A DNA stretch of 17,965 nt from an uncultured Rhodospirillaceae bacterium (GTDB lineage: Bacteria > Pseudomonadota > Alphaproteobacteria > UBA6615). Every line of letters begins with the position of its first letter. The stretch's first letter is position 1. This document shows positions 24 through 15,283 of this stretch, in pieces. Under the pieces are notes generated by a model. That model did not search any database. It was not told the DNA's origin and saw only the letters and a program-made list of their open reading frames with translations. Location of the stretch: contig CAZHBA010000037.1 in assembly GCA_964530225.1 (NCBI GenBank), positions 1 to 17,965 of the forward strand, read 5' to 3'. A program made the translations under genes and the position numbers.

Positions 24-51
24 ATCAAGTTTAATAAACCAACCCCGAACC

Positions 52-139
<88 letters not shown>

Positions 140-146
140 TACTGTA

Positions 147-166
147 GTCCACTGATGTTCGTGGAC
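147..166 (+). terminator. Hairpin GTCCAC-tgatgttc-GTGGAC directly downstream of tRNA-Ser; possible tRNA transcript terminator or processing structure
   Basis: Perfect 6-bp inverted repeat with an 8-nt loop, 8 nt after the tRNA CCA, followed by an AT-rich tract (atccattaatatcatataaac). No clean U-run, so this is weak. Confidence 0.25.
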
Positions 167-213
167 ATCCATTAATATCATATAAACAATCGATTAGACT
201 TTCCTTTTTCTTT

Positions 214-264
214 GGGTGGTTCAGCAGTTACAATTTCCGATAGACTTAGAGAGTTAAAAACGAT
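214..264. repeat. Left copy of a 51-bp inverted repeat (50/51 identical to the reverse complement of 2137-2187)
   Basis: gggtggttcagcagttacaattTccgatagacttagagagttaaaaacgat, versus the reverse complement of 2137-2187 gggtggttcagcagttacaattGccgatagacttagagagttaaaaacgat. It encodes [16 protein letters not shown] on the plus strand, a duplicate of the linker and first half of the SHOCT domain of the 2067..3083 gene. It overlaps the last 3 codons and stop of the 254..1078 gene. Confidence 0.9.
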
Positions 265-1078
265 TGAATCCGGCAGTCGTCAGACGATAGACTGCAACGG
301 CGACTATAATACCTCCAATCCATTCACCTCCCCCGCGGCAGGGCGTGCATGCTCCGCCAATGATTACCCATGCGAACAAGAAACCGACAAAGGTCAGAAG
401 TATTCGTGAAATTTTTTGCCCAACGGTGAATGGTTTGGCTAACTCCGCTGTTCGCCAAGCAGCGCGAAGCCTATCATGTGCAGCCGCTGTTCGCCTATCA
501 CGTTCAACATTAACATGCTCTATATAGGCACTGTCGTCGTAGCTCTCATGGTAAAAACGACGGCATGCCAGCTGAATTTCTTCTTCGGATTCATTAGGTA
601 AATCATAACGCCCCTCCCCACCAAAATACCTGATCTGAATGCTCTCAGCATCACAAATCTTTTTGAAGTCCTCGACTTCAATAAATGAAACCGCTGTACC
701 TTTTTTCCAATAAACTTGTGAACTGCCGTCGCCCTGGATACCGTGGTCGCTTTCCCCGCTTTCAGTCTTTATAGGACTTACGATTTCCTCGTCACAGCTA
801 AATGCAATATTATCCATGGTGACCACGTCCCAACTGGGATAACCGGAAGATGCGGACGCCTCAGAAATAAAATAAAAACCGAGAAGATCTTCATCTTCAT
901 CCTCATATCTTCTGATAGTCAGATGTACTTTGGCGGCGTGGGTTCCGTGACCGGAGTAATAAAACCCTAACTCATCCTTAGAATAAGTTAGGGTAGATTC
1001 TTCATAAGGATCGAAGACAACTTTTATAAATTTTTTCTCAGTAACAACATTATCTGAAATTGACTCTTTTTTGGCCAT
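254..1078 (-). CDS. Hypothetical acidic protein (274 aa): ~210-aa Asp/Glu-rich soluble domain followed by two predicted C-terminal TM helices. Fourth gene of the low-GC operon.
   Basis: Long ORF with a good SD (AGGTGAG, 9 nt before the ATG) and 14 bp after the upstream gene's stop. Hydrophobic stretches ILLTFVGFLFAWVIIGGA and WIGGIIVAVAVY sit at the C-terminus, preceded by an Arg-rich segment. I recognise no family. The 5' two-thirds is AT-rich and the 3' ~280 nt is GC-richer. Confidence 0.55.
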   Translation of the reverse strand: MAKKESISDNVVTEKKFIKVVFDPYEESTLTYSKDELGFYYSGHGTHAAKVHLTIRRYEDEDEDLLGFYFISEASASSGYPSWDVVTMDNIAFSCDEEIVSPIKTESGESDHGIQGDGSSQVYWKKGTAVSFIEVEDFKKICDAESIQIRYFGGEGRYDLPNESEEEIQLACRRFYHESYDDSAYIEHVNVERDRRTAAAHDRLRAAWRTAELAKPFTVGQKISRILLTFVGFLFAWVIIGGACTPCRGGGEWIGGIIVAVAVYRLTTAGFNRF

Positions 1079-1092
1079 GGAAACTAACTCAC

Positions 1093-1359
1093 CTATTTCG
1101 AGCTCTCAGAATTTTTAATAGCAGCAATTTCTCTGTCAACAATTTTAATTTTTTTGTTAAGCATATCGCTTGGCGCAAGACCGAACGATTTTTGAAGGAA
1201 CGATTTTTTTCCTTCTAAGCGAGCCAATTCTTGCTCAATTTCCCGTTTGTCAGCTTCTTTCTTTTGGGCGGCTTTTTGTGCGGCTGGATTAACCTGTGTA
1301 CTTTTACAATAAGGGCAAATGTGAGTGTCACAGGAGGCTCCGCAATTATTACATTTCAT
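1093..1359 (-). CDS. Small zinc-ribbon protein (88 aa): N-terminal CxxC-x9-CxxC ribbon plus a Lys/Glu-rich coiled-coil tail; YdjG-like partner of SPFH proteins
   Basis: MKCNNCGASCDTHICPYCKS gives four Cys in CxxC...CxxC arrangement, followed by a charged helical region (KKEADKREIEQELARLEGKK). It sits in the operon 37 bp after the membrane-protein gene. Confidence 0.6.
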   Translation of the reverse strand: MKCNNCGASCDTHICPYCKSTQVNPAAQKAAQKKEADKREIEQELARLEGKKSFLQKSFGLAPSDMLNKKIKIVDREIAAIKNSESSK

Positions 1360-1396
1360 GGCAGAACTTTTCGGAAAGACTGTTCAGAGATCGCGA

Positions 1397-2077
1397 CTAA
1401 CATGACTTTGCTAAATTGGTTAGTTCCACAATTTTATTTCTACACTCAATAATCTCAGTTGAGTTAGGCTCTAATTTTTCAATAGACAAAACGAGAAGCC
1501 TATAACCATCCAGGTTTTTTATGCTAGCTAAGTGCGGCACCGAGTACTGAATAATTTCCTTTAATTTCTTCAAGTCTTTATCTAGCTCTTTTTTTTCAGC
1601 GGATAAATTGTTTGAAATCACCTGTAACTTTTTGATCAAATCTTCTTTCGGCAACACATCGTCAGGCACATTTACTTCCGCAGCTTTGGAAGCAATAATT
1701 AACAAAACAAATAAAATTGCGAAGATGCAAAACGAAATTATTTGACCTATAAGATGCCAATTTGGCAAAATTTCAAAATTATAAAAGAACCAAGAACCTA
1801 CTAAAAAAGAGCCACTTATAAGAGAATATAAAAAAACCACAAAACCCATGGATGGAAGGGCACCGATTAACGTTGATTTTTTACCTTCTCGTGATTTATG
1901 GACCAGAAGTGTTGCAACTCCCCAATTTAGTGCCGCTAAAAAAACGATCCATCCCACACTAAGCCAAAAATTTAGGTTACCCAATTTATCTGGTCGAATG
2001 AGAGCAGCTACGGCGACAATACCTACGGCAGTTATTAAGAAAATACTTATTAATAATTTGTTCATTTTAGATTTCAT
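1397..2077 (-). CDS. Integral membrane protein (~226 aa; 4 predicted TM helices in the N-terminal 140 aa) with a C-terminal cytoplasmic coiled-coil domain
   Basis: The ORF track gives 1397..2092 with a GTG start. Internal ATGs at 2077 and 2065 overlap or abut the stop (2067-2069) of the upstream SPFH gene, consistent with translational coupling. Hydrophobic segments are LLISIFLITAVGIVAVAALI, LSVGWIVFLAALNWGVATLLV, LIGALPSMGFVVFLYSLISGSFLVGSWFF and IGQIISFCIFAILFVLLII. The C-terminus is KEDLIKKLQVISNNLSAEKKELDKDLKKLKEI. Confidence 0.6.
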   Translation of the reverse strand: MKSKMNKLLISIFLITAVGIVAVAALIRPDKLGNLNFWLSVGWIVFLAALNWGVATLLVHKSREGKKSTLIGALPSMGFVVFLYSLISGSFLVGSWFFYNFEILPNWHLIGQIISFCIFAILFVLLIIASKAAEVNVPDDVLPKEDLIKKLQVISNNLSAEKKELDKDLKKLKEIIQYSVPHLASIKNLDGYRLLVLSIEKLEPNSTEIIECRNKIVELTNLAKSC

Positions 2078-3083
2078 CAATAATTTTATCACGTGCGGTG
2101 TTGAATTCTTCTTCTGTAATTAGGTTTTCATCCAACATCGTTTTTAACTCTCTAAGTCTATCGGCAATTGTAACTGCTGAACCACCCTTTGCTTCCACAT
2201 TAAGGTTTTGTCCAAGTTGTTGTCCGATAGGCAATCCAGCTCCTAAACCGATGCCAGCTCCTAGCATCGCTCCAACGCCTGCACCATCACCAGGGTTCTC
2301 GGCTGCAGCATTCAGTACTTCAAAGGTCTTGATAGCCTGATAGGCCCCGCCAACTTCCACTTTCGATAACTCTCTCGCTTCCATTGCCTTAGAAAATACC
2401 TCTTGGATTTGCGCCATTTGATCGTCAGGTATGTTGATACTTTCAATATTAAAATTCACAACCTCCAAACCAAATCGATCAAATTCATCCGAAATAGAAG
2501 AATATGTTCGCTCAGATAATTCGTTTAAGGACCCCGCAATTTGTAATATAGAAATTTGATCGTTGGTAATCCCTTCAGATAAAACGGAAATTAATTTTTG
2601 GATTATTTCCCCAATAAAATAATTTTGAAGTTTTAAAGCGTCAGCACTGTTTTGGGACCCCACAATCTGGGTCAAGAATGACCTGGTGTCGGTTATTCGT
2701 GCGCCCCATTTGCCAAAAGACCTTACGCTGACGGGAAATCCTAAAGCTAGATCCATTATTGGAACCGGTGAAGGGGTCCCCCATTTTAAATCTCTCTTTA
2801 CGTTTTTATTTACGTACCAAATTTCTGCAGTAAAAGGGGTATCGCCTCCAAATGGTAGATTTAAAAGCCTGTTTAATAGAGGTATATTTCCTGTCTCTAG
2901 TGTGTGGGTTCCAGGGGGCAAAACGTCCAAGACCTCTCCGCCTTTGACAAAAACGGCGTCTTGAGCTTGATTAACTATTACTTGAGAACCCAACTTCAAT
3001 TCTTCCCCTGGAAATTTCCAGACGAATTCTTGGTCGTTAGGTTGGTCATATTTAACTCTGTCAACTATAGCCATCATAACCAC
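2067..3083 (-). CDS. SPFH/Band-7 superfamily protein of the Band_7_1 ('virion core protein-like', B. subtilis YdjI-like) type with a C-terminal SHOCT domain
   Basis: The N-terminal region (VWKFPGEELKLGSQVIVNQAQDAVFVKGGEVLDVLPPGTHTLETGNIPLLNRLLNLPFGGDTPFTAEIWYVNK) matches my recollection of the YdjI/Band_7_1 signature. A Gly-rich linker (GDGAGVGAMLGAGIGLGAGLPIG) follows, then a C-terminal SHOCT-like tail (TIADRLRELKTMLDENLITEEEFNTARDKIIDEI). The track start is GTG at 3083. ATGs at 3077 and 3074 are better placed relative to GGTGG and are the likely true start. Low GC. Confidence 0.8.
   Translation of the reverse strand: MVMMAIVDRVKYDQPNDQEFVWKFPGEELKLGSQVIVNQAQDAVFVKGGEVLDVLPPGTHTLETGNIPLLNRLLNLPFGGDTPFTAEIWYVNKNVKRDLKWGTPSPVPIMDLALGFPVSVRSFGKWGARITDTRSFLTQIVGSQNSADALKLQNYFIGEIIQKLISVLSEGITNDQISILQIAGSLNELSERTYSSISDEFDRFGLEVVNFNIESINIPDDQMAQIQEVFSKAMEARELSKVEVGGAYQAIKTFEVLNAAAENPGDGAGVGAMLGAGIGLGAGLPIGQQLGQNLNVEAKGGSAVTIADRLRELKTMLDENLITEEEFNTARDKIIDEI
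2137..2187. repeat. Right copy of the 51-bp inverted repeat (inside the 3' end of the SPFH-SHOCT gene)
   Basis: Reverse complement is identical to 214-264 except one base (G/T; Ala versus Ser codon). It covers codons GGSAVTIADRLRELKT of the 2067..3083 gene. Confidence 0.9.
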
Positions 3084-3124
3084 CGTTAAAAGTTTGCGTT
3101 AAAAGTGGGTTTCACACCGGGAAA

Positions 3125-3130
3125 AGTCAA
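3125..3130 (-). promoter_or_regulatory. Candidate -35 hexamer TTGACT for the low-GC operon; -10 not clearly assignable
   Basis: Minus strand reads ...AGAGTATACTCTacaagaaaagTTGACTtttcccggtgtgaaacccacTTTTAAcgcaaacttttaacGGTGGttATGATG. The -35 is a perfect consensus but the best -10-like hexamers are at non-ideal spacing. Confidence 0.3.
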
Positions 3131-3140
3131 CTTTTCTTGT

Positions 3141-3152
3141 AGAGTATACTCT
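3141..3152. promoter_or_regulatory. Perfect 12-bp palindrome AGAGTATACTCT upstream of the operon -35; candidate regulator-binding site
   Basis: Seen directly. It is self-complementary over 12 bp, centred ~16 bp upstream of the TTGACT hexamer, in the 277-bp intergenic region between cbtA and the SPFH gene. Confidence 0.4.
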
Positions 3153-3310
3153 GTAAAAGAGGCTGGGAATTGCAGCTTATTGCGCCCCCTCGGCCCAAGC
3201 TCAGCAATCGCCCTCGCCGATCTCAGCCGCCCGACCCGCCGTCGATCAATGCCGAGTTAGTTTGGGGGTAGATTTGTGGGTAGCAATTAAACGGTATTGT
3301 CAAAACCTGA

Positions 3311-3346
3311 GAAAACATGGGTTTTCGGCGGACCCTCTCTCCGCCA
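3311..3346 (-). terminator. Tandem hairpins downstream of cbtA (GGCGGA-ccctctc-TCCGCC, then GAAAAC-atgg-GTTTTC followed by T-rich ttctcaggtttt on the minus strand); candidate intrinsic terminator
   Basis: They lie 15-50 nt after the cbtA stop (3361) on the minus strand. The second hairpin runs into a U-rich tract. Confidence 0.35.
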
Positions 3347-3360
3347 GATTTGCTCCGCCC

Positions 3361-4107
3361 CTACGCCTTGCTCTCGCCGAGGCGCCGATAGATTTCGCCG
3401 GCGCTGGCGCCGAGTAACAGCCAGAAGAACAGTGCCGCCGCCAGCGTCCAGACGACATAGAGCGACGCCAGTTCGGGTGGTACTGGCCCCGGTTCGAGGC
3501 CGGCCGGGCGCGGCGCACCAATCAGATGGGGCAACAGGATCACGGGCACGCCAATGGCGCGCAGCCATAGGGGCTTGGCGAAGACCAATAGGCCGAGCCC
3601 GAGCGCGGTCGCGCCCATGGCACCAAACCACCAAAGCTGGCGGACCTGTATTTCTGCCGCACCGCCGCCGGGCACTTCCGGCGGCAACCCGAGCGACGGC
3701 GCAAGTGTGAAGATGACGTAGCCCGCCATGCCCCACCACAGCCCAACCCGCATATCGACGGGCTTAGCCCGGATGGCGAACGCTGCAACCATGACAAAGG
3801 CAAAGCCCACCGCGGTGACGATATTGGCGAGAAAGGTAAAGCCGTAGCGTTGGAGGCCGTCCAGCGGCTGCCACGGCGCTACCGGCTCTACGTCAGACAC
3901 CCCTGTGGCGGCGCTTTTCTCGTGGAGGTGGATCTGGCCGTCATCGTGTAGATGCTCGACAACACCGTAGCTGTGGCCGCCACCGACTTGCTCATAGGCT
4001 TCGGCTTCAAGGATCAGCGGCGTTACCGTGAACGCCTGCACTACGCTGTAAATCACGGCTGTTAAAAACCCGGCGAACAGGCCGGTCGTTACCATCCGGC
4101 GCAGCAT
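3361..4107 (-). CDS. cbtA: Cobalt transporter subunit CbtA (multi-TM, His-rich periplasmic segment)
   Basis: 248 aa with multiple TM helices and a His-rich segment GGGHSYGVVEHLHDDGQIHLHE typical of CbtA. It sits immediately after a CbtB-like small protein (11-nt gap). Confidence 0.78.
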   Translation of the reverse strand: MLRRMVTTGLFAGFLTAVIYSVVQAFTVTPLILEAEAYEQVGGGHSYGVVEHLHDDGQIHLHEKSAATGVSDVEPVAPWQPLDGLQRYGFTFLANIVTAVGFAFVMVAAFAIRAKPVDMRVGLWWGMAGYVIFTLAPSLGLPPEVPGGGAAEIQVRQLWWFGAMGATALGLGLLVFAKPLWLRAIGVPVILLPHLIGAPRPAGLEPGPVPPELASLYVVWTLAAALFFWLLLGASAGEIYRRLGESKA

Positions 4108-6392: not shown

Positions 6393-9300
6393 TCACTGCG
6401 CTACCGTCGTCGCTGGCTCGGCGGCCAGTTTGGCAAGCTGCATCATCAGCCGGTACACGCCACCCAGGCGCTGCTTATCGTTGACCCATTTGTGCTGATA
6501 GACCAGCTTGTGGTCAGGACGCAGTTTCACGGTGCCGACCTGGCTGGTGATGAACTCGATCAATGCCCCGGGATTTGCAAAAGAGTTGTCACGAAAACTG
6601 ATGACAGCGCCCTTGGGGCCAGCATCGAGTTTTTCGACACCGGCGTTGTGGCAGAGCTTTTTTAACGCCACCACCTGCAGCAGATTTTCCACTTCCGTCG
6701 GCAAAGGACCGAAGCGGTCAATAGCCTCGGCGGCGAAGCCATCGATTTCGGCTGGCTCGACCAATGCGGCGATACGTCGATAGAGGTTCAACCGCAAAGC
6801 CAGATCGGCGACGTAGGTTTCGGGAATGAGGATCGGCGTACCCAGCGCGATCACCGGTGTCCACTCTGCCACCACTGCGCCGCCACCGGAATCGCGCGCC
6901 GCCGCTACTGCCTCCTCCAGCATCTGCTGGTACAGCTCAACCCCAACTTCGCGGATATGACCCGATTGCTCCTCGCCTAAAAGATTACCGGCGCCACGGA
7001 TATCGAGATCATGGCTGGCAAGGCTAAAGCCGGCCCCCAGGGAGTCCAGGGTTTGCATGACATCTAGGCGTTTGCGCGCGGTGTCCGACAACTGACGGTC
7101 GACAGGCAATGTCAAATACGCATAGGCGCGCACCTTGGCGCGGCCAACCCGGCCGCGCAGCTGATAGAGCTGCGATAGGCCGAACATGTCGGCGCGGTGG
7201 ACGATAATCGTGTTGACCGACGGCAAATCGAGCCCGGACTCGATGATATTGGTGCACAGCAAAACCTCGTACTCGCCCCCGTAGAACGAAGCCATCACCC
7301 GCTCGAGCGCCCGCGCCGGCAACTGGCCATGGGCGACGGCGATTTTTACTTCCGGCACCAGGGTACACAGCCGCTCTTCAAGGTTTGCCATATCCTCGAT
7401 ACGTGGACAGACATAGAAGGTTTGGCCGCCGCGGAAATGCTCGCGCATGATCGCTTCGCGCACGGTCACTGGGTCGTAGGGCATCACAAAAGTACGCACC
7501 GCCAGCCGGTCGATCGGCGGCGTCGCGATCAGGCTCAGCTCGCGCACCCCGGTCAGGGCAAGTTGCAAGGTGCGTGGGATAGGCGTCGCCGTCAGCGTAA
7601 GAACATGTACATCGGAGCGTAATTTTTTCAGGCGCTCCTTTTGTGTGACGCCGAAATGCTGCTCTTCGTCGACGATGAGTAAGGCGAGATCGCGGAACTC
7701 GATGCTCTTGCTCAAAAGGGCGTGGGTACCAATGACAATATCGATGGTGCCATCAGCCATGCCGACGCGCACATCGTGGGCCTGCTGGCCGGTAACCAGG
7801 CGCGATAGCTGGCCGATATTCACGGGCAACCCAGCAAAACGCTCGCAGAAAGTCTGATAATGCTGGCGCGCCAACAGCGTGGTTGGTACCACGACGGCGA
7901 CTTGATAGCCGTTCAGCGCCGCCACGAAGGCCGCCCGCAAGGCAACCTCGGTCTTGCCGAACCCCACATCACCGCACACTAGCCGGTCCATGGGCCGACC
8001 GCTCGACAGCGCGGCAATCGTATCATCAATCGCACGCGTCTGATCGTCGGTCTCGTTGAACGGGAAGCGGGCGCAGAACTCTTCGTAGAGTCCCGACGGC
8101 AGCGGCAGCCTCTCTCCCTCGCGCAATTGCCGCTCGGCGGCAGTGCGCAACAGCTCGCCGGCAATCTCCTTTATTTGCCCCTTGACCTTGGCGCGGCGCG
8201 CCTGCCAACCGGCCCCACCCAAACGGTCGAGCTGCGCCGTCGCCTCTTCCGAACCGAAGCGCGACAGGAGTTCCAAATTCTCGACCGGCAGATACAGCTT
8301 GTCGTCGTTGGCATAGACTAGGCGCAAGCAATCGTGGGGGGCGCCGCCGATTTCTAACGTTTCCAAACCCTCAAATCGGCCAATGCCATGATCGACGTGA
8401 ACGACAAGATCGCTCTCCGATAGGCTGGCCACTTCGGCAATGAAATTTTCCGCCCGCCGGGTTCGCTGTGCGCGGCGAACCAGCCTGTCCCCCAATAGGT
8501 CCTGCTCGGTGTAGATAGTCAGCCCGGCGGAGGTAAAGCCAGTATCTAGACCAAGGACGAAGACCGGTAGTAGGTCGGCGACTGCTTTGCCAACGTCAGC
8601 CCATGTCTCCGCACTTTGCGCACCATCTATGCCGTGGTCGAACATCAATTGCACCATGCGATCGCGCGATCCGGCGGTGTAGGCCGCGATCGCCACACGC
8701 TGGCCGCTCGCCCTGTCATTAGCGATGCGTTGGCCGACGGCCTCGAACAAATCGACGTCGGGCCGGTTACGAGCATCGGCAAAATTATGCGCGCGGCGGC
8801 CCTCGATAGCGACCATATCGGGGGTGGTATCTGGCGCGTGGAACACGTTGAGACGTCCGATAACCCTATCGTCCAGACGAGCTTGCCACTCGTCTTCGGG
8901 CAGGTACAACGTTTCCGGCGGTAGCGGGTTGTAAACAACATTGTCATCCGACTGTTGTCCCTTCTTGACCGCCGCGGCAAAGTCTACCCGTGCGGTGTAA
9001 TAGTCGGTGATCAGCTCCTGGCGGGCGTTCAAGGCCTCGGCGCTTTGCAAGCCGATGAGGATAGGTCCGTCAACATAGTCGAACACCGTCGCCACGGAAT
9101 CGTAGAACAGCGGCAGCCAGTGCTCCATGCCGGGGTGGCGAACACCGGCGCTGACCGCCTCATAAAGAGCGTCCTTGCTGCGGACCGCGCCGAACATTTT
9201 CCGGTAACGGTTGCGGAATCTCTCGGCAGTGCCTGCGGCAAAAATAACTTCGCTGGCCGGCATCAGGTTCAGGCTGTCGCGCACCTCGATGGTCCGCTGG

Positions 9301-9917
9301 TTCAGAGCGTCGAAGCCACGGATGCCCTCCAACTCATCACCAAAGAGATCAAGGCGCAACGGGTCCTCGGTGCCGGGTGGAAATACATCAATAATGCCGC
9401 CGCGGACGGCAAATTCACCGGGTTCACGCACGGTATCGGTGCGCAGATAGCCGTTCTCCAATAAGAACGCGACGAGCCGAGCGGTATCAATAGTATCTCC
9501 AGGCTGGGCCGAGTAGTGACTGGCGGCAACGATTTCCGGGGTTGGTAGCCGCTGGAGTGCGGCGCTGGCCGTCGTAACAACCAGTGCCGGTGCACCTCCA
9601 TCGCCCCGGTTGGCCAAGGCGCTTAACGTCGCCAGGCGGGTCGCCATCACGTCATGACGCGGCGGCACCCGATCATAGGGCAGGCAGTCCCATGCTGGTA
9701 GCGTCAATATCCGGGCAGTAGCCGCGTAAAAACGTACCGCGTCGGCAGTACGCGCCATCGCCGCTTCGTCACTGGCGACGTGCAATATCGTTCGCACCTG
9801 CTCAGTGGACGCACTGTCTATAAGTTCGGCAAGTAACAATGCATCACACCCTTCGGGCACGCCGGTGAACGTTACGTCCTTACTGGTCGCGAAGGGATTA
9901 TCCTTGAAAAACAACAA
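6393..9917 (-). CDS. mfd: Transcription-repair coupling factor Mfd
   Basis: 1174 aa with UvrB-homology N-terminus, RNAP-interacting region, superfamily-2 helicase motifs (GDVGFGKTEVA, DEEQHFGV, TATPIPRT, QLRGRVGR) and C-terminal TRCF domain. Confidence 0.97.
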   Translation of the reverse strand: MLFFKDNPFATSKDVTFTGVPEGCDALLLAELIDSASTEQVRTILHVASDEAAMARTADAVRFYAATARILTLPAWDCLPYDRVPPRHDVMATRLATLSALANRGDGGAPALVVTTASAALQRLPTPEIVAASHYSAQPGDTIDTARLVAFLLENGYLRTDTVREPGEFAVRGGIIDVFPPGTEDPLRLDLFGDELEGIRGFDALNQRTIEVRDSLNLMPASEVIFAAGTAERFRNRYRKMFGAVRSKDALYEAVSAGVRHPGMEHWLPLFYDSVATVFDYVDGPILIGLQSAEALNARQELITDYYTARVDFAAAVKKGQQSDDNVVYNPLPPETLYLPEDEWQARLDDRVIGRLNVFHAPDTTPDMVAIEGRRAHNFADARNRPDVDLFEAVGQRIANDRASGQRVAIAAYTAGSRDRMVQLMFDHGIDGAQSAETWADVGKAVADLLPVFVLGLDTGFTSAGLTIYTEQDLLGDRLVRRAQRTRRAENFIAEVASLSESDLVVHVDHGIGRFEGLETLEIGGAPHDCLRLVYANDDKLYLPVENLELLSRFGSEEATAQLDRLGGAGWQARRAKVKGQIKEIAGELLRTAAERQLREGERLPLPSGLYEEFCARFPFNETDDQTRAIDDTIAALSSGRPMDRLVCGDVGFGKTEVALRAAFVAALNGYQVAVVVPTTLLARQHYQTFCERFAGLPVNIGQLSRLVTGQQAHDVRVGMADGTIDIVIGTHALLSKSIEFRDLALLIVDEEQHFGVTQKERLKKLRSDVHVLTLTATPIPRTLQLALTGVRELSLIATPPIDRLAVRTFVMPYDPVTVREAIMREHFRGGQTFYVCPRIEDMANLEERLCTLVPEVKIAVAHGQLPARALERVMASFYGGEYEVLLCTNIIESGLDLPSVNTIIVHRADMFGLSQLYQLRGRVGRAKVRAYAYLTLPVDRQLSDTARKRLDVMQTLDSLGAGFSLASHDLDIRGAGNLLGEEQSGHIREVGVELYQQMLEEAVAAARDSGGGAVVAEWTPVIALGTPILIPETYVADLALRLNLYRRIAALVEPAEIDGFAAEAIDRFGPLPTEVENLLQVVALKKLCHNAGVEKLDAGPKGAVISFRDNSFANPGALIEFITSQVGTVKLRPDHKLVYQHKWVNDKQRLGGVYRLMMQLAKLAAEPATTVAQ

Positions 9918-9918
9918 A

Positions 9919-10197
9919 TTACAGTCCGGTTCTAAATTTTCTCAGCAGCGCCATAATCTCCGTATCCCATTCCGGCGGAACCGGTTTGCGCCCGCTGATC
10001 CACATAAACAGGTCGGGATCGCTGTTCTCGATTAGCGCTTCATACTGGTCGAGCATGTCGGCAGACAACTCTGCCAGATGGCGTGCCGCGAACTGTCCCA
10101 GCAACACGTCAGTTTCCTTGGTGCCGGTGTAGCTGCTGCGGTAACGCAAACGCTTGATGCGAATGTCTTGAGGCTCCACGGCTCTAAGCTCCTCCAC
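9919..10197 (-). CDS. sdhE: Succinate dehydrogenase flavinylation/assembly factor SdhE (DUF339/Sdh5 family), operonic with mfd
   Basis: Core YRSSYTGTKETDVLLGQFA...LSADMLDQYEALIENSDPDLFMWISG matches SdhE (RGxxE-like motif and DPDL motif). Its stop is 1 nt from the mfd start. The track ORF extends to 10368 (149 aa). SdhE proteins are ~90 aa, so a GTG start at 10197 or 10179 (the latter with GGAGGA 10 nt upstream) is more plausible. Confidence 0.7.
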   Translation of the reverse strand: MEELRAVEPQDIRIKRLRYRSSYTGTKETDVLLGQFAARHLAELSADMLDQYEALIENSDPDLFMWISGRKPVPPEWDTEIMALLRKFRTGL

Positions 10198-10267
10198 AGC
10201 AAAACGCGCCGTCGGCGCTTTAGCGCGACGATTACTGGCCGACAGGGCGACACTGCCGTAGGATATA

Positions 10268-10295
10268 GCGGCTAGAGCAGTGTACAGATAGATGG
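10268..10295. repeat. Arm 1 of an imperfect inverted repeat in the sdhE-recG divergent intergenic region (25/28 matches with arm 2, 20-bp perfect core ATCTATCTGTACACTGCTCT)
   Basis: The reverse complement ccatctatctgtacactgctctagccgc aligns with 10511-10538 cgatctatctgtacactgctctcaccgc. Confidence 0.8.
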
Positions 10296-10510
10296 AATCA
10301 TTTCTATTGGCGGTCGGTGCGGAAGACGGCGCAGCCCAATGCGGCGTATTGGGTAAACCATCGGACAAAGCGGTTGCCCGCCGAACGCCAGCCCGGAGGG
10401 GGTGGGTGTCTATACGCCAAATCCTGCGAGCTTAGGCTCGACCATAGCTACGGCTATGCTCTTTACCGAAGCCCTTGGCCTTGACCTAAATCCGCTCCGT
10501 CAAAATGGTT

Positions 10511-10538
10511 CGATCTATCTGTACACTGCTCTCACCGC
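10511..10538. repeat. Arm 2 of the sdhE-recG intergenic inverted repeat
   Basis: See arm 1. The arms are ~243 bp apart and a 6-bp-stem hairpin CATAGCtacgGCTATG (10443-10458) lies between them. Confidence 0.8.
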
Positions 10539-10579
10539 ATGCTGTCAGCCATTGAAGCTAGTCATTCGGGTCTTATCCA

Positions 10580-12694
10580 TTGTCCGTCCACACGCGTCCC
10601 GAAATCCTGTTTCCCGTCTTCGCGCCCGTCACTTCGATTAAGGGCGTCGGACCGCGTATCGGCAGGTTGATCGAGCGCGTCGCCGGTCCGCACATCGCCG
10701 ACTTGTTATGGCACCTACCAACGGGCTTGCTTGACCGTCGCTACGCGCCATTGGTGCGCGATGCCGAACCCGGACGTATTGCCACCTTGACCATCCGTGT
10801 CGACGGCCACCGTCTGCCGCCAGTCGCTAACCGACGCATCCCATATAAGATCCATTGCTCTGACGAGACCGGCGACATTGATCTAGTGTTTTTCCACGCC
10901 CGTGCCGACTATCTAAAAAAGACCCTGCCACCGGGCGAGCAGCGGGTAATAAGCGGTACGGTAGAGCTTTTCGACGGCGTCTTGCAAATGACCCACCCCG
11001 ATATCGTCACGCCAGTGTCCGAACGTGATGCGGTGATGCAGGTGCATCCCATCTACCCGCTGACCGAAGGGCTAAGCCAAAACGTCTTGCGCCGCACGAT
11101 CGTTGAGGCCGTTGGTCGGACGCCTGAGCTATCCGATTGGCTCGATCCGGCTTTCGCGGCACAACGGGATTGGCCAGGCTGGCACGAGGCTATCGTCAGT
11201 GTACACGAACCGTCTGACCTCGCTGATTTGGACCCCAACCAATTGGCGCACCAGCGGTTGGCCTATGACGAGTTGTTGGCCAGCCAATTGGCTATTGGGC
11301 TGGTGCGCGCGAGGACCCGCAAGAGGCCGGGTCTACCGACCATCGGCGATGGCTCTCTGCGCGCAAAAGCCGTTGACGCCCTGCCCTTCGAAATGACCGT
11401 GAGTCAACACCAGGCCATCGACGACATCATCTCCGACATGGCGTCGGACACGCGCATGCTGCGCCTGCTGCAGGGTGATGTCGGTAGTGGCAAAACCGTG
11501 GTAGCGCTGATGGCGATGCTGAACGCAATCGAAGAAGGCCGACAAGCGGCCTTGATGGCACCAACAGAAATCCTCGCACGACAGCATTTTGCCACTATCG
11601 CGCCCCTCGCCAAGGCGATTGGTGTGTCTGCCGTATTACTGACCGGACGTGATAAGGGCAAAGCGCGGCAGGAAATCCTCGGCCGCTTTGCCTCCGGCAG
11701 AACGTCCATCGTCGTCGGCACCCACGCGCTGTTCCAACAGGATATCGCTTTCAACGATCTGGCGCTTGCCGTGGTCGATGAGCAGCACCGGTTCGGCGTC
11801 CACCAACGCTTGCTGTTAGCCGAAAAAGGCGCTGCGGTCGATGTGTTGCTAATGACGGCAACACCGATCCCGCGCACGCTGATGCTGGCTTTCTACGGCG
11901 ATCTCGATGAATCGCGGTTGACCGAAAAGCCGGCCGGACGCCTGCCCATCGATACCCGCACTATCCCCTTGTCGCGCCTCAACGAGGTGGTCGCCGCCGT
12001 TGGCCGTAAACTCGCTGAAGGCGCAAAGGTTTATTGGGTCTGCCCACTAGTTGAGGAATCGGAGAGTATAGATCTTGCCGCCACCACGGCGCGCCATACC
12101 GCACTGGCAGAGATTTTTGGCGAGCGGGTCGGTCTGATACACGGACAGTTGGGATCACGCGAAAAGGACGCCGCGATGAGCCGCTTCACCGGAGCCGCCA
12201 AAGGGACCCCGCCGATTGATTTGCTGGTAGCGACCACCGTCATCGAAGTTGGGGTTGACGTGCCCGATGCTACGGTCATGGTGATCGAACATGCCGAGCG
12301 TTTTGGTCTGGCCCAGCTCCACCAACTGCGCGGGCGGATCGGCCGCAGCGACAAACCCTCAACCTGTCTGTTGGTCTACGCCAACGAGTCCAGCAAAACT
12401 GCTCGTGCACGCCTGGCCATTCTGCGCGAGACCGACGACGGATTTCGCATTGCCGAGGAAGATTTGCGCCTGCGTGGCGCCGGCGACCTGCTTGGCACGC
12501 GCCAGTCTGGCCTGCCGGATTTCCGCTTGGCCGATCTGGAAGCCCATGGCGAGCTATTGGTCATGGCACGCAACGATGCGAAATTGATCATCGAGCGCGA
12601 CCCAGCCCTGGAGACGGAGCGCGGCGAAGCGCTGAGAGTTTTGTTGTACTTGTTCGAGCGCGACGCCGCGGTGCGATTGGCCCGAGCCGGCTAA
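10580..12694 (+). CDS. recG: ATP-dependent DNA helicase RecG
   Basis: 704 aa with N-terminal wedge domain and helicase motifs (GDVGSGKTVVA, DEQHRFGV, TATPIPRT, QLRGRIGR). TTG start at 10580; the N-terminus RPEILFPVFAPVTSIKGVGP resembles RecG N-termini. Confidence 0.96.
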   Translation: MSVHTRPEILFPVFAPVTSIKGVGPRIGRLIERVAGPHIADLLWHLPTGLLDRRYAPLVRDAEPGRIATLTIRVDGHRLPPVANRRIPYKIHCSDETGDIDLVFFHARADYLKKTLPPGEQRVISGTVELFDGVLQMTHPDIVTPVSERDAVMQVHPIYPLTEGLSQNVLRRTIVEAVGRTPELSDWLDPAFAAQRDWPGWHEAIVSVHEPSDLADLDPNQLAHQRLAYDELLASQLAIGLVRARTRKRPGLPTIGDGSLRAKAVDALPFEMTVSQHQAIDDIISDMASDTRMLRLLQGDVGSGKTVVALMAMLNAIEEGRQAALMAPTEILARQHFATIAPLAKAIGVSAVLLTGRDKGKARQEILGRFASGRTSIVVGTHALFQQDIAFNDLALAVVDEQHRFGVHQRLLLAEKGAAVDVLLMTATPIPRTLMLAFYGDLDESRLTEKPAGRLPIDTRTIPLSRLNEVVAAVGRKLAEGAKVYWVCPLVEESESIDLAATTARHTALAEIFGERVGLIHGQLGSREKDAAMSRFTGAAKGTPPIDLLVATTVIEVGVDVPDATVMVIEHAERFGLAQLHQLRGRIGRSDKPSTCLLVYANESSKTARARLAILRETDDGFRIAEEDLRLRGAGDLLGTRQSGLPDFRLADLEAHGELLVMARNDAKLIIERDPALETERGEALRVLLYLFERDAAVRLARAG

Positions 12695-12697
12695 AAC

Positions 12698-12722
12698 CCG
12701 ATTAGCCGACCCCATTAATCGG
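12698..12722. terminator. Hairpin CCGATTA-gccgaccccat-TAATCGG between convergent recG and the DUF502 gene; possible bidirectional terminator
   Basis: 7-bp perfect stem with an 11-nt loop in the 20-bp gap between the convergent stops. No U-tract, so weak. Confidence 0.2.
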
Positions 12723-13482
12723 CGGTAACCGGTTCCTTATTGGCTTTGCTGGGCGCGAGTTCGTCGTCGCCGATCGTCGGCTTATCGCTGTCGGCGCGAC
12801 CCACCCGCTTGATTTTTTGCTGCTCAACCGGACGTATGTCGGGCGGGGTTACTATGCCGCCTGAAATAATCATTTTAATGGCGTCCTCGACGCTCATAGA
12901 AAGATCTACCAACTCGCGGCGCGGCAAGAATAATAGGTAGCCGGACGTCGGGTTGGGTGTGGTCGGCAAGAATACATTGACCACTTCGTCCTCGGTCACG
13001 TTTTGAACCTCGCCGATGGTCTTACCGGTGACGAAGCCGATGGCCCAGCTGCCGCGCCTCGGATACTCGAATAACACCGCCTGGCGGAACGCGTCGGACT
13101 GGTGCGCCAGCACCGTTTCGACGATTTGCTTGGTGGCGCTATAGATACTGCGCACCACCGGCATGCGGCTGAGCAAATGTTCGCCACCGTGCACGATCCA
13201 ACGTCCCAGGAGAAGCCGGGTCAGGACACCGATAAAGGTAATGAATACAAATAGGACAATGACCCCAAGACCGGGAATACCGAACGGCACGTAGGTGTTA
13301 GGGTTGTAGGCCGTGGGGATTAACGGCGTGATACGGTCATCGATGAAGTTCAGCACCAGCCAGCTCAGCCAGAAAGTAATACCCACCGGCGCCACCACCA
13401 ACAGGCCGGCAAGAAAATAGCCACGCGTGCGCGCCCATATACCAGTCCGGTGCTTTCTTTCTCTATGGGGCATTCCACCCAA
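12715..13482 (-). CDS. DUF502 (COG2928) family membrane protein
   Basis: Two N-terminal TM helices, then the conserved core RMPVVRSIYSATKQIVETVL...AVLFEYPRRGSWAIGFVTG typical of DUF502 proteins. Confidence 0.8.
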   Translation of the reverse strand: MGGMPHRERKHRTGIWARTRGYFLAGLLVVAPVGITFWLSWLVLNFIDDRITPLIPTAYNPNTYVPFGIPGLGVIVLFVFITFIGVLTRLLLGRWIVHGGEHLLSRMPVVRSIYSATKQIVETVLAHQSDAFRQAVLFEYPRRGSWAIGFVTGKTIGEVQNVTEDEVVNVFLPTTPNPTSGYLLFLPRRELVDLSMSVEDAIKMIISGGIVTPPDIRPVEQQKIKRVGRADSDKPTIGDDELAPSKANKEPVTAD

Positions 13483-13639
13483 TCCGTTAAGCGGCGCAGT
13501 TTCGCCGAGCCGCCTATCATATAGGGACTAAACTACCGTCCGCCATGGCCTATTGTGCTAATTTTAGGATTATGAAACGCGCCCATCTATTTGACAAACA
13601 AAGATATTTCGGCGGAAATGTTAGAGAAAATCAAAAAGA

Positions 13640-13726
13640 TGGTGCGGCTGAGAGGACTCGAACCTCCACGGGCATGCGCCCACTAGCACCTGAAGCTAGC
13701 GCGTCTACCAATTTCGCCACAGCCGC
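13640..13726 (-). tRNA. tRNA-Leu (anticodon CAG), class II with long variable arm, CCA encoded
   Basis: Reverse complement GCGGCTGTGGCGAAATTGGTAGACGCGCTAGCTTCAGGTGCTAGTGGGCGCATGCCCGTGGAGGTTCGAGTCCTCTCAGCCGCACCA. Anticodon stem CTAGC/GCTAG with loop TTCAGGT gives CAG. T-arm GGTTCGAGTCC. Confidence 0.88.
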
Positions 13727-13830
13727 ACGGCTCACGGAAGGTCCGCCTGATACGCCACCCGAGGCCACCGATCAAGGGTGGTCCGCGAATGCCAAACTTT
13801 ACCTGTGCCCAATCCGCTGCAAATTCCCGA

Positions 13831-13917
13831 TGGTGCGGCAGAGAGGACTTGAACCTCCACGGGGTTTCCCCCACAACGCCCTCAACGTTGCGCGTCTACC
13901 AATTCCGCCACTGCCGC
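13831..13917 (-). tRNA. tRNA-Leu (anticodon GAG), class II with long variable arm, CCA encoded
   Basis: Reverse complement GCGGCAGTGGCGGAATTGGTAGACGCGCAACGTTGAGGGCGTTGTGGGGGAAACCCCGTGGAGGTTCAAGTCCTCTCTGCCGCACCA. Anticodon stem CAACG/CGTTG with loop TTGAGGG gives GAG. Confidence 0.88.
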
Positions 13918-14050
13918 GCCTTATGGGAACGGCGGTTATGTACCCGAAGGCCGTCAGCGAGGCAACTGCCGCTACGACCACGCTATAAGGCGTTGTCCCC
14001 TTGCTCTACGGGGCGACCTGGGGACATTATAGAAACCGAACGAACCAGGG

Positions 14051-14932
14051 ATGGGCAGATCGCAAATGGGATACAAATCAATACTCGTGCCGCTGGAGGA
14101 GAGCGATGTGTTGCCGTCGGTGCTGGCGACCACATTGGTTGTGGCACGTCAGTTTGATAGCTACATTGAGGGGCTATGTATTCGACCCTCATTGGCAGGC
14201 GCCATAGCGGTTGGATTCGAGGGTGGCGTCGCCGCGCTGGCCGGCACCGAAGAGCAGTTCGAGCAGGAACAGGAAAGCCGAACCCGCCGTCTGCAAGAGC
14301 AGTTCGAAGGGTTCGTACGCGATAACGGCCTGGCCGTCGCAGCGAGCGCCAGCGCCGAAGGACTAAGCGCACGCTGGTCTGAGGACGAAGCGTCGGGCAT
14401 CGGTGTGTTCGGCCAGCGGGGCCGGGTTTTTGATTTGATCGTTGTCGGCAGACCAACCCCAGGCGTGTTGACCCCGGCGATGAACACGTTGGAGACCGTA
14501 CTGTTCGAATCCGGCCGGCCAGTTTTGATTGCACCGCCAACACCGCCGCAATCCGTGGCCCACCATGTGGTAATCGCCTGGAACGGCAGCACAGAAACGG
14601 CTCGGGCCGTGGCCTTCGCGAGGCCGTTCCTACAGGGCGCCGAGCGTGTCACTGTACTCTCCGTCGAAGGCGCGTTAGTTCCGGGTCCCAGCGGCGATGA
14701 GGTTGCCGGTGGCCTGCGCCGCCTCGGCGTCAACGCGGAGGTGTCCAATTCAGTGGGCAAGCGTTCGCCCGCCACCGCCGGCGCCGTGATGCTCCAGGAA
14801 GCGGAAAAGCTGAACGCCGATCTGCTGGTTAAAGGCGGCTACACGCAAAGCCGATTCCGGCAAATGATTTTCGGCGGCGCCACTAACCATATACTTAATG
14901 AAGCGCAAATTCCGGTATTGATGGCGCACTAA
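14051..14932 (+). CDS. Universal stress protein family protein with two tandem USP (UspA) domains
   Basis: N-terminus YKSILVPLEESD and C-terminal motifs ADLLVKGGYTQSRFRQMIFGGATNHILNEAQIPVLMAH match the Usp signature (G-x2-G-x9-GS-like ATP-binding region). 293 aa fits a tandem USP. An alternative ATG at 14066 is possible. Confidence 0.85.
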   Translation: MGRSQMGYKSILVPLEESDVLPSVLATTLVVARQFDSYIEGLCIRPSLAGAIAVGFEGGVAALAGTEEQFEQEQESRTRRLQEQFEGFVRDNGLAVAASASAEGLSARWSEDEASGIGVFGQRGRVFDLIVVGRPTPGVLTPAMNTLETVLFESGRPVLIAPPTPPQSVAHHVVIAWNGSTETARAVAFARPFLQGAERVTVLSVEGALVPGPSGDEVAGGLRRLGVNAEVSNSVGKRSPATAGAVMLQEAEKLNADLLVKGGYTQSRFRQMIFGGATNHILNEAQIPVLMAH

Positions 14933-14935
14933 TCG

Positions 14936-14945
14936 CCGGCGCCGG
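14936..14945. terminator. 10-bp palindrome CCGGCGCCGG in the 24-bp gap between convergent usp and the coiled-coil ORF; possible short bidirectional terminator stem
   Basis: Self-complementary, with no flanking U-run. Confidence 0.15.
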
Positions 14946-14956
14946 TCGCTCGCTTA

Positions 14957-15283
14957 TTAGGCGGACGCAGTCTGACGCTCGATCGCGGCAACCAACAGCC
15001 CTACCGCCGATTGCAGAGCGGTGAACTTGCCTTCCGCGCGATTAACCCGTTCGACCAAGTGTTCGTGCTGAGCCTCGCCCTGAATGGGCGGCGATAACGT
15101 GCGTTGCCCGGCCAGCTTATTCAGGGCCGCCTGCATTTGTTGGCGCAAGACCTGCTCGCGCTCGTGCAGCTGCAACAGTTGGTCGACGTACTCGTTCAAG
15201 CGTTGCTGCTCGCGCAGCAGCCGACTGAGTTCGGTGCGTTGCATTTCGATGACCACCAACTGGCTATCCGCTGACAGGACCAA
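14957..15283 (-). CDS. Hypothetical coiled-coil protein (108 aa from TTG; 95 aa from ATG at 15243), Gln/Leu/Arg-rich heptad-like sequence
   Basis: It sits 55 bp downstream of, and on the same strand as, the hydrolase gene. It has no TM and a strongly helical composition (ELSRLLREQQRLNEYVDQLLQLHEREQVLRQQMQAAL). No family recognised. An antisense ORF (15084..15401) of similar length makes coding status uncertain. Confidence 0.4.
   Translation of the reverse strand: MVLSADSQLVVIEMQRTELSRLLREQQRLNEYVDQLLQLHEREQVLRQQMQAALNKLAGQRTLSPPIQGEAQHEHLVERVNRAEGKFTALQSAVGLLVAAIERQTASA

Follow-up and report, generated by a model that had tools for sequence, protein, structure and literature searches.

The window, a whole metagenomic contig of 17,965 nucleotides (nt) from an uncultured Rhodospirillaceae bacterium (CAZHBA010000037.1, assembly GCA_964530225.1), contained near its left end a low-GC block that starts immediately 3' of a tRNA-Ser(tga) gene at position 139. 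Four co-directional open reading frames (ORFs) were found in this block on the minus strand, spanning 254-3083, and are named here genes A, B, C and D (Table 1). They encode an SPFH protein (A), a protein with four transmembrane (TM) helices (B), a short zinc-ribbon protein (C) and a protein with a C-terminal TM hairpin (D). This module is best read as a mobile, PspA-less Band_7_1 relative of the SamGHI/YdjGHI membrane-stress module of Bacillus subtilis, with a new, near-obligate 4-TM partner family and swappable zinc-ribbon adaptors.

The block (140-3180) showed 40.4% GC, and the GC content at third codon positions (GC3) of its genes was 0.32-0.39, against 58.7% GC in the remaining 14.8 kb of the window, where ten genes had a GC3 of 0.62-0.76. 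A preliminary description of this DNA had noted such a contrast in composition, the position at the 3' end of a tRNA-Ser gene, the tight packing of the four genes and a Shine-Dalgarno sequence of gene D. All of these were confirmed: ARAGORN and Rfam both placed the tRNA-Ser at the border of the block, the intergenic gaps were 37 nt between B and C and 14 nt between C and D, and GGTGAG was found upstream of D. The stop codon of A is separated from the ATG of B by 1 nt, and the two genes overlap if B uses its GTG start.

Table 1. Features of the low-GC block and its borders in the window (AF2, AlphaFold2; pI, isoelectric point).
Feature	Position (nt)	Strand	Details or basis
tRNA-Ser(tga)	52-139	+	ARAGORN; Rfam tRNA 57 bits
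Inverted repeat, arm 1	214-264	.	covers the end of D (three codons and the stop) and 40 nt of its 3' flank
Gene D	254-1078	-	274 aa, pI 5.0
D, TM hairpin (residues 219-273)	260-424	-	AF2, hydropathy; short outer loop with CTPC
D, beta-sandwich (residues 11-133) and small alpha/beta subdomain (135-179)	542-1048	-	AF2
Gene C	1093-1359	-	88 aa, pI 9.2
C, N-terminal CxxC-x8-CxxC zinc ribbon	1306-1353	-	motif read in translation
Gene B	1397-2065 from ATG; alternative GTG start at 2092	-	222 aa from ATG
B, C-terminal helical bundle (~80 residues)	1406-1648	-	AF2 secondary structure
B, four TM helices	1682-2062	-	hydropathy; AF2 secondary structure
Gene A	ORF 2067-3083; likely ATG at 3077 or 3074	-	335-336 aa, pI 4.5
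A, C-terminal SHOCT domain	~2082-2162	-	Pfam
Inverted repeat, arm 2	2137-2187	.	within A; encodes GGSAVTIADRLRELKT at the start of SHOCT
A, glycine-zipper segment	~2226-2282	-	invariant Gly/Ala columns
A, Band_7_1 SPFH domain	~2400-3023	-	Pfam
Right edge, AT-rich, upstream of A	3084-3180	-	GC reaches backbone level by ~3180

Protein A matched the Pfam model Band_7_1 (PF13421) at model positions 1-205 of 211 with 160.3 bits (cut-off 24, E=6.5e-47), and the SHOCT model (PF09851) at residues 308-334 with 28.5 bits, barely over the cut-off of 27. Both domains had been assigned to A in the preliminary description, and both scores exceed their thresholds. Most close homologues of A bear the same precomputed SHOCT match. 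A Gly-rich linker was found at residues 262-290, and the C-terminal region contained no cysteine. The protein search returned A in forms of 336 aa and 335 aa, and exact-sequence look-ups from the GTG start and from the first ATG found neither on record. A had been considered cytosolic. It has no TM segment, as no window reached a hydropathy of 1.6, but a hydrophobic glycine-zipper segment, AGVGAMLGAGIGLGAGLPI, showed invariant Gly/Ala columns in the homologues and a mean hydropathy of 1.54, and A may therefore be membrane-associated instead of purely cytosolic.

More than 1,700 relatives of A were found. The 60-73%-identical ones come from marine metagenomes, and their named sources are SAR202, Pelagibacteraceae and Alphaproteobacteria. 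A scan of GTDB genomes with the single A sequence revealed only relatives of 28-44% identity (Verrucomicrobiota, Ignavibacteria and one betaproteobacterium), and no homology to B, C or D was detectable in the loci of these relatives. In the Verrucomicrobiota loci, the Band_7_1 protein is nevertheless encoded together with a zinc-ribbon/TM protein and a small protein of 3-4 TM helices, and in the Ignavibacteria locus several zinc-ribbon/TM proteins followed the Band_7_1 gene. No PDB relative of the A family was found by sequence profile, and searches of A-D against PHROGs and NCBIfam gave nothing informative.

The association of A with B was examined in 80 metagenome loci found with the A profile. 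In 76 of them, the ORF immediately following A matched a hidden Markov model (HMM) of the B family, indicating that A and B form a near-obligate, translationally coupled pair. No Pfam match was found for B, nor for D. Searches of Pfam, PADLOC and PDB sequences with an alignment of 41 B members gave scattered chance hits but nothing consistent, and B is thus a family without an existing model. B also showed no NfeD, YqiJ or protease signature. Judging from the charged second loop and the positive-inside rule, B probably has an N-in/C-in topology, and its C-terminal helical domain would then be cytoplasmic.

In 57 of the 80 loci, a gene within three positions of A-B encoded a protein that starts with a zinc ribbon, and many of these proteins have TM helices at the C-terminus. 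C of the window falls in the single-linkage cluster of these proteins, and its motif (C3-x2-C6...C15-x2-C18) is common to a cluster of 58 members. After its zinc ribbon, C continues as a charged helix and has no TM segment. The preliminary description had called this zinc ribbon TFIIB-like. The CxxC...CxxC motif is present, but none of the Pfam zinc-ribbon models was significant for C, the TFIIB model (Zn_Ribbon_TF) giving E=0.44. A longer relative of C scored 20.5 bits with zinc_ribbon_3, under the cut-off of 27. The nearest relatives of C are proteins of 75-79 aa in loci L019, L096 and L097.

The AF2 model of D is confident, with a predicted local distance difference test score (pLDDT) of 86.9. 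In this model, a long basic helix lies between the alpha/beta subdomain and the TM hairpin. The beta-sandwich part of D is cytoplasmic. D had been described as an acidic protein with two C-terminal TM helices, in agreement with its pI and its hairpin (Table 1). The TM region of D has a GC content of ~0.53, richer than the remainder of the gene. D is nearly an orphan: a word-indexed search of 5.8 billion clusters returned D alone, and an exhaustive HMMER search of 1.84 billion representatives revealed 26 remote relatives. These are mostly tail-anchored proteins of 210-290 aa, most of them with a single TM segment, and share the motifs FDPFEE, DQE and KKICDA..IE.R...FY.E..D. Four members of the D family (P0128, P0136, P0143 and P0146) have no TM anchor, and show a conserved C-terminal module starting GGCF(I/V)ATA.YG...LR.FRD..L. 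The beta domain of D gave no NTF2-like match, and no fold match for D was found in BFVD.

The type found in the window, a short zinc-ribbon C together with D, is rare, yet it recurs in other loci. In L096, homologues of C (77 aa) and D (252 aa) have overlapping stop and start codons and are convergent to A-B, and in L097 the C and D homologues flank A-B, one on each side. In L019, a 575-aa fusion protein (11501-13228, minus strand) starts with a zinc ribbon and continues through a D domain (E=8e-19), a coiled coil and a TM segment to a PG_binding domain in the periplasm. This natural fusion of the C and D families reaches the cell wall. It is evidence of the Rosetta-stone type for a joint action of C and D, and also suggests a connection of the cytoplasmic scaffold to the envelope through D-type proteins. 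The expectation that the four families co-occur as a cassette was therefore borne out, both for the A-B pair and for C-like and D-like proteins beside it in L096 and L097 or fused in L019.

The other accessory genes of the related loci define sub-types. One sub-type comprises a YidD-like protein of 86 aa, a DUF4177-like protein of 83 aa and a zinc-ribbon/TPR/TM protein of ~290 aa; another a ~170-aa protein and a ~288-aa zinc-ribbon protein; and a further one a ~200-aa protein and a zinc-ribbon protein of 326-390 aa. The commonest is the first, seen in L031 (2834-4275) and ~20-29 similar loci, in which the YidD-like (Pfam YidD 5.7e-9) and DUF4177-like genes lie between B and the zinc-ribbon/TPR/TM gene.

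The cassette was also found on a complete integrative island. In L019, an island of 7.2 kb (7699-15001) lies at a tRNA-Cys gene (7699-7772) and is bordered by a perfect direct repeat of 46 nt (7727-7772 and 14956-15001), the attachment (att) sequence, which duplicates the 3' end of the tRNA. A tyrosine integrase is encoded at 13879-14856. The cargo is composed of A, B, a 169-aa protein, three zinc-ribbon proteins, the zinc-ribbon/D-domain/peptidoglycan (PG)-binding fusion and a 65-aa D-subdomain protein, and no other cargo was found. L020 has the same A protein as L019, with a different flank upstream of tRNA-Cys. Genes of tRNA or tmRNA adjoin the cassette in at least ten other loci, among them L020, L023, L031, L054/56, L059, L097, L100, L103 and L108, and the cassette of L031 is also near a tRNA-Ser(tga). 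One JGI contig contained an integrase two genes upstream of A-B, and the 134 ORFs neighbouring 20 loci included four integrases and two resolvases. In L104 (78-4456), a cassette of 40.6% GC lies beside a small serine recombinase/resolvase, between genome flanks of 64% GC. The accessory pair of L104 (221 aa and 386 aa) is inverted compared with its orientation in L023. In genomes of ~30% GC, the composition of the cassette equals that of the flanks, and low-GC marine lineages are therefore the likely reservoir.

In the window copy, we found no integrase or recombinase in the island or beside it. Its right border showed neither a right attachment site (attR) nor any trace of the tRNA-Ser 3' end in searches with up to three mismatches and by short-word BLAST. 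An island variant of 84% identity, L109, has a different AT-rich flank upstream of A, and its homology to the window stops at ~3111. Considering that GC reaches the backbone level by ~3180, the right edge of the island can be placed between 3111 and 3180. The window copy is probably a decayed or fixed remnant of a mini-island, ~3 kb long and without integrase or attR. Horizontal acquisition at the tRNA, which the preliminary description had put forward, is supported by the GC and GC3 contrast, the tRNA-adjacent relatives and the integrase island of L019. The window copy resembles known tRNA-integrating islands in its site at a tRNA 3' end and its deviant composition, and differs from them in the absence of integrase and attR and in its size of only ~3 kb.

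SPFH scaffolds are universal yet poorly understood. To our knowledge, the Band_7_1 branch has a single studied example, SamI/YdjI of B. subtilis, and we take YdjI to be a member of the Band_7_1 Pfam family. Among the papers searched, none named PF13421 or COG4260 or connected proteins of the SPFH type with defence islands. SamI/YdjI lacks a membrane anchor; a low-complexity linker follows its SPFH domain, and its C-terminus is a zinc finger. The membrane proteins SamG and SamH bring it to the membrane, and PspA foci depend on it (PMC8581546; bioRxiv 10.64898/2026.02.06.704340). YdjG contains two zinc ribbons, an NTF2-like domain and a TM segment, and YdjH contains a TPM domain (PMC11237479).

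The likeness to YdjGHI, noted in the preliminary description, holds for the theme and fails in most details. In both systems, the SPFH protein has no anchor, its SPFH domain is followed by a low-complexity linker, and the neighbouring genes encode membrane partners and zinc-ribbon proteins. However, A ends in a SHOCT domain instead of a zinc finger; B, a 4-TM/helical-bundle protein of an unmodelled family, is not a homologue of the TPM-domain protein YdjH/SamH, and none of its 41 relatives showed a TPM match in Pfam; and C, unlike YdjG, has just one short zinc ribbon and neither an NTF2-like domain nor a TM segment. D has no counterpart in SamGHI/YdjGHI, the gene order differs, and the window module is mobile instead of being a sigma-W-embedded chromosomal one. 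Because most membership features fail, we consider the module as one that works like SamGHI, not as a member of that family.

Two other groups of proteins may be compared with A. Band-7 proteins with two TM segments and a SHOCT domain were noted in PspA-free polyamine operons by Ravi et al. 2024, and SHOCT was proposed as an anchor or assembly domain at the inner leaflet of the membrane (PMC11237479). By their described architecture, these proteins share with A the Band-7 domain, a short hydrophobic segment and SHOCT, whereas A has only a single borderline Gly-zipper segment and no polyamine-metabolism genes near it. The pairs HflK/C-FtsH, stomatin/QmcA-NfeD and flotillin-YqiJ/YuaF likewise combine an SPFH scaffold with its own small membrane protein, encoded in the same operon, and an oligomeric ring or cage on the membrane is expected for both. 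Unlike these, A has no N-terminal TM anchor, and the cassette rides on integrative islands.

Considering these results, we think that the region from 140 to ~3150 is, on balance, probably a mini-island that a high-GC marine bacterium acquired from a low-GC marine lineage, which has lost its integrase and whose cargo is a self-contained membrane-scaffold module. By analogy with SamGHI/YdjGHI and with the ring or cage assemblies of SPFH proteins, B and D would sit in the inner membrane, and A would oligomerise as an SPFH assembly on the cytoplasmic face. A may dock by its Gly-zipper/SHOCT end onto the helical bundle of B, and C may bridge A or B to D via its zinc ribbon and helix. D, or the variable accessory protein that replaces D elsewhere, would couple the scaffold to an envelope cue or client. 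The output would likely be local membrane stabilisation or stress signalling, and it may run through a PspA/ESCRT-III-type protein encoded elsewhere. Since the cassette is mobile, we might speculate that it provides an accessory, conditionally useful envelope function.

Several results weigh against this scaffold interpretation. B, C and D showed no TPM or NTF2-like match in Pfam and no homology to SamH or SamG. No match to pspA was found among the window ORFs scanned, and none in the surveyed related loci. The AF2 model of B is of low confidence (pLDDT 61), too low for its structure to be usable in a fold search. The 51-nt inverted repeat of the island (Table 1) is not explained by a scaffold module. 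And an island cargo limited to the module could equally mean a function in conflict or defence.

An anti-phage role, which the preliminary description had suggested for the module, was weighed. The cassette would then be a membrane-acting system of abortive infection or exclusion carried on small integrative islands, in which the zinc-ribbon/D-type proteins sense infection and A-B gates a membrane insult or blocks phage entry or assembly. Consistent with this, the cassette is nearly the entire cargo of the complete integrase island in L019, its distribution is patchy across phyla at 60-70% identity, and its accessory genes are highly variable round a constant core. Recombinases also lie nearby, including the small serine recombinase of L104, and small serine recombinases have been proposed as markers of defence loci (PMC13552941). 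Moreover, phage infection induces envelope responses of the sigma-W and Psp types (bioRxiv 10.64898/2026.02.06.704340). However, neither A-D nor the 41 B relatives had a match in PADLOC (PADLOC-DB 2.0), no recognisable toxic effector domain was found, and the flanks of related cassettes are housekeeping genes. The 134 flanking ORFs of the 20 loci, a small sample, gave generic cross-hits to ABC ATPase, ThiF and trypsin and no defence system; no relatives were found in IMG/VR viral contigs with the patterns used, and the BFVD search for D was also negative. The suggestion thus found no backing in PADLOC, among the neighbouring genes or in viral contigs, and we consider an anti-phage function of the cassette unlikely. 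It is likewise doubtful that A-B with its interchangeable zinc-ribbon accessories is an unrecognised mobile immunity or exclusion system on miniature tRNA-integrating islands of marine bacterioplankton. If true, an immunity system with zinc-ribbon/D-type sensors and an SPFH-4TM effector would be spreading among these bacteria, including those with streamlined genomes of ~30% GC. As the window is a metagenomic contig, a chimeric join also had to be excluded, namely that the low-GC block was assembled from a second organism at the conserved tRNA. L012 (NCBI GCA_035092285.1) might point to this: it is identical to window 51-2306 save one mismatch at position 57, a G-C to G-U change in the acceptor stem of tRNA-Ser, and diverges exactly at the 5' edge of the tRNA, the sequence upstream of its tRNA-Ser (2257-3368) being wholly different, with 41-51% GC and small ORFs of helix-turn-helix (HTH) type. 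This divergence, however, sits on the opposite side of the tRNA from the island, and we read it as strain variation at a tRNA hotspot; the difference upstream suggests a second variable site at the tRNA cluster. The junction between low and high GC lies ~3 kb away from the tRNA and is crossed by three contigs from different projects at 99.95-100% identity: L014 (JGI 3300035250, matching window 6111-3071), L016 (ENA ERZ27286381, 3931-316) and L017 (Tara Oceans ERR599062, 3357-1236). An assembly chimera is therefore rejected as extremely improbable.

The inverted repeat had been described as flanking the island, and this was not the case: one arm lies inside the SHOCT-coding part of A, and the other covers the stop codon and 3' flank of D. 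The arms are 51 nt long, 98% complementary and 1.87 kb apart, enclosing B-C-D. The longest exact stretch is 28 nt, whereas 100 shuffled sequences gave no more than 18 nt. Arm 2 is the original, native copy, and the A sequence flanking it is conserved in homologues. Arm 1 repeats this part of the SHOCT-coding sequence in inverted form; it is isolated, with sharp borders and no similarity beyond them. The repeat was absent from L019, L021, L023, L096 and L097, and L109 ends before arm 1. Such a repeat, clearly non-random in its length and complementarity, could make B-C-D an invertible, phase-variable DNA switch that turns the module off and truncates the SHOCT end of A, and the order or orientation of the accessory pair does vary among cassettes (L096 and L097; L104 compared with L023). 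But the six assemblies that cross one or both arms showed a single orientation throughout, no recombinase accompanies the island, inversion would give A a tail of antisense D that has no domain signature, and the related cassettes have no such repeat. We regard a DNA switch as very improbable. The repeat might instead act in the mRNA, where a 51-bp duplex round B-C-D, like the rRNA processing stems, would serve as an RNase III site or a protective 3' end and would set the stoichiometry of A to B-C-D. Both arms would be on one transcript if the operon is read through, no intrinsic terminator was found after D on the minus strand, and the predicted RNA duplex of the arms has -86 kcal/mol. This idea is purely inferential, and the repeat occurs in one sequence lineage only, not being conserved in any related cassette. 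We consider a role in the mRNA quite unlikely. It is compatible with the scaffold-module explanation, as an added regulatory layer.

The locus shows that a PspA-less version of a SamGHI-type module exists. The module is mobile: it makes up nearly the entire cargo of a tRNA-integrating island and has entered genomes that differ greatly in composition. This raises the question of what advantage lies behind its spread among marine bacteria, tolerance of envelope stress or resistance to phages. It also offers a compact, transferable four-gene system for dissecting SPFH recruitment.

Beyond the island, the backbone of the window contains cbtAB, NIPSNAP, a DsbA-like gene, mfd, sdhE and recG, a set that would fit a proteobacterium. 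At 9919-12694, mfd, the Sdh5/SdhE-family gene and recG are adjacent, and two tRNA-Leu genes come after them (13640-13726 and 13831-13917). At the boundary of island and backbone, an imperfect palindrome of 22 nt centred on GTATAC was found at 3128-3165, in the gap that separates cbtA from A, and could be a terminator of cbtA or an operator of the cassette. At the other end, positions 1-23 of the window represent the 3' end of another tRNA-like sequence, 83% identical to the 3' end of tRNA-Ser.

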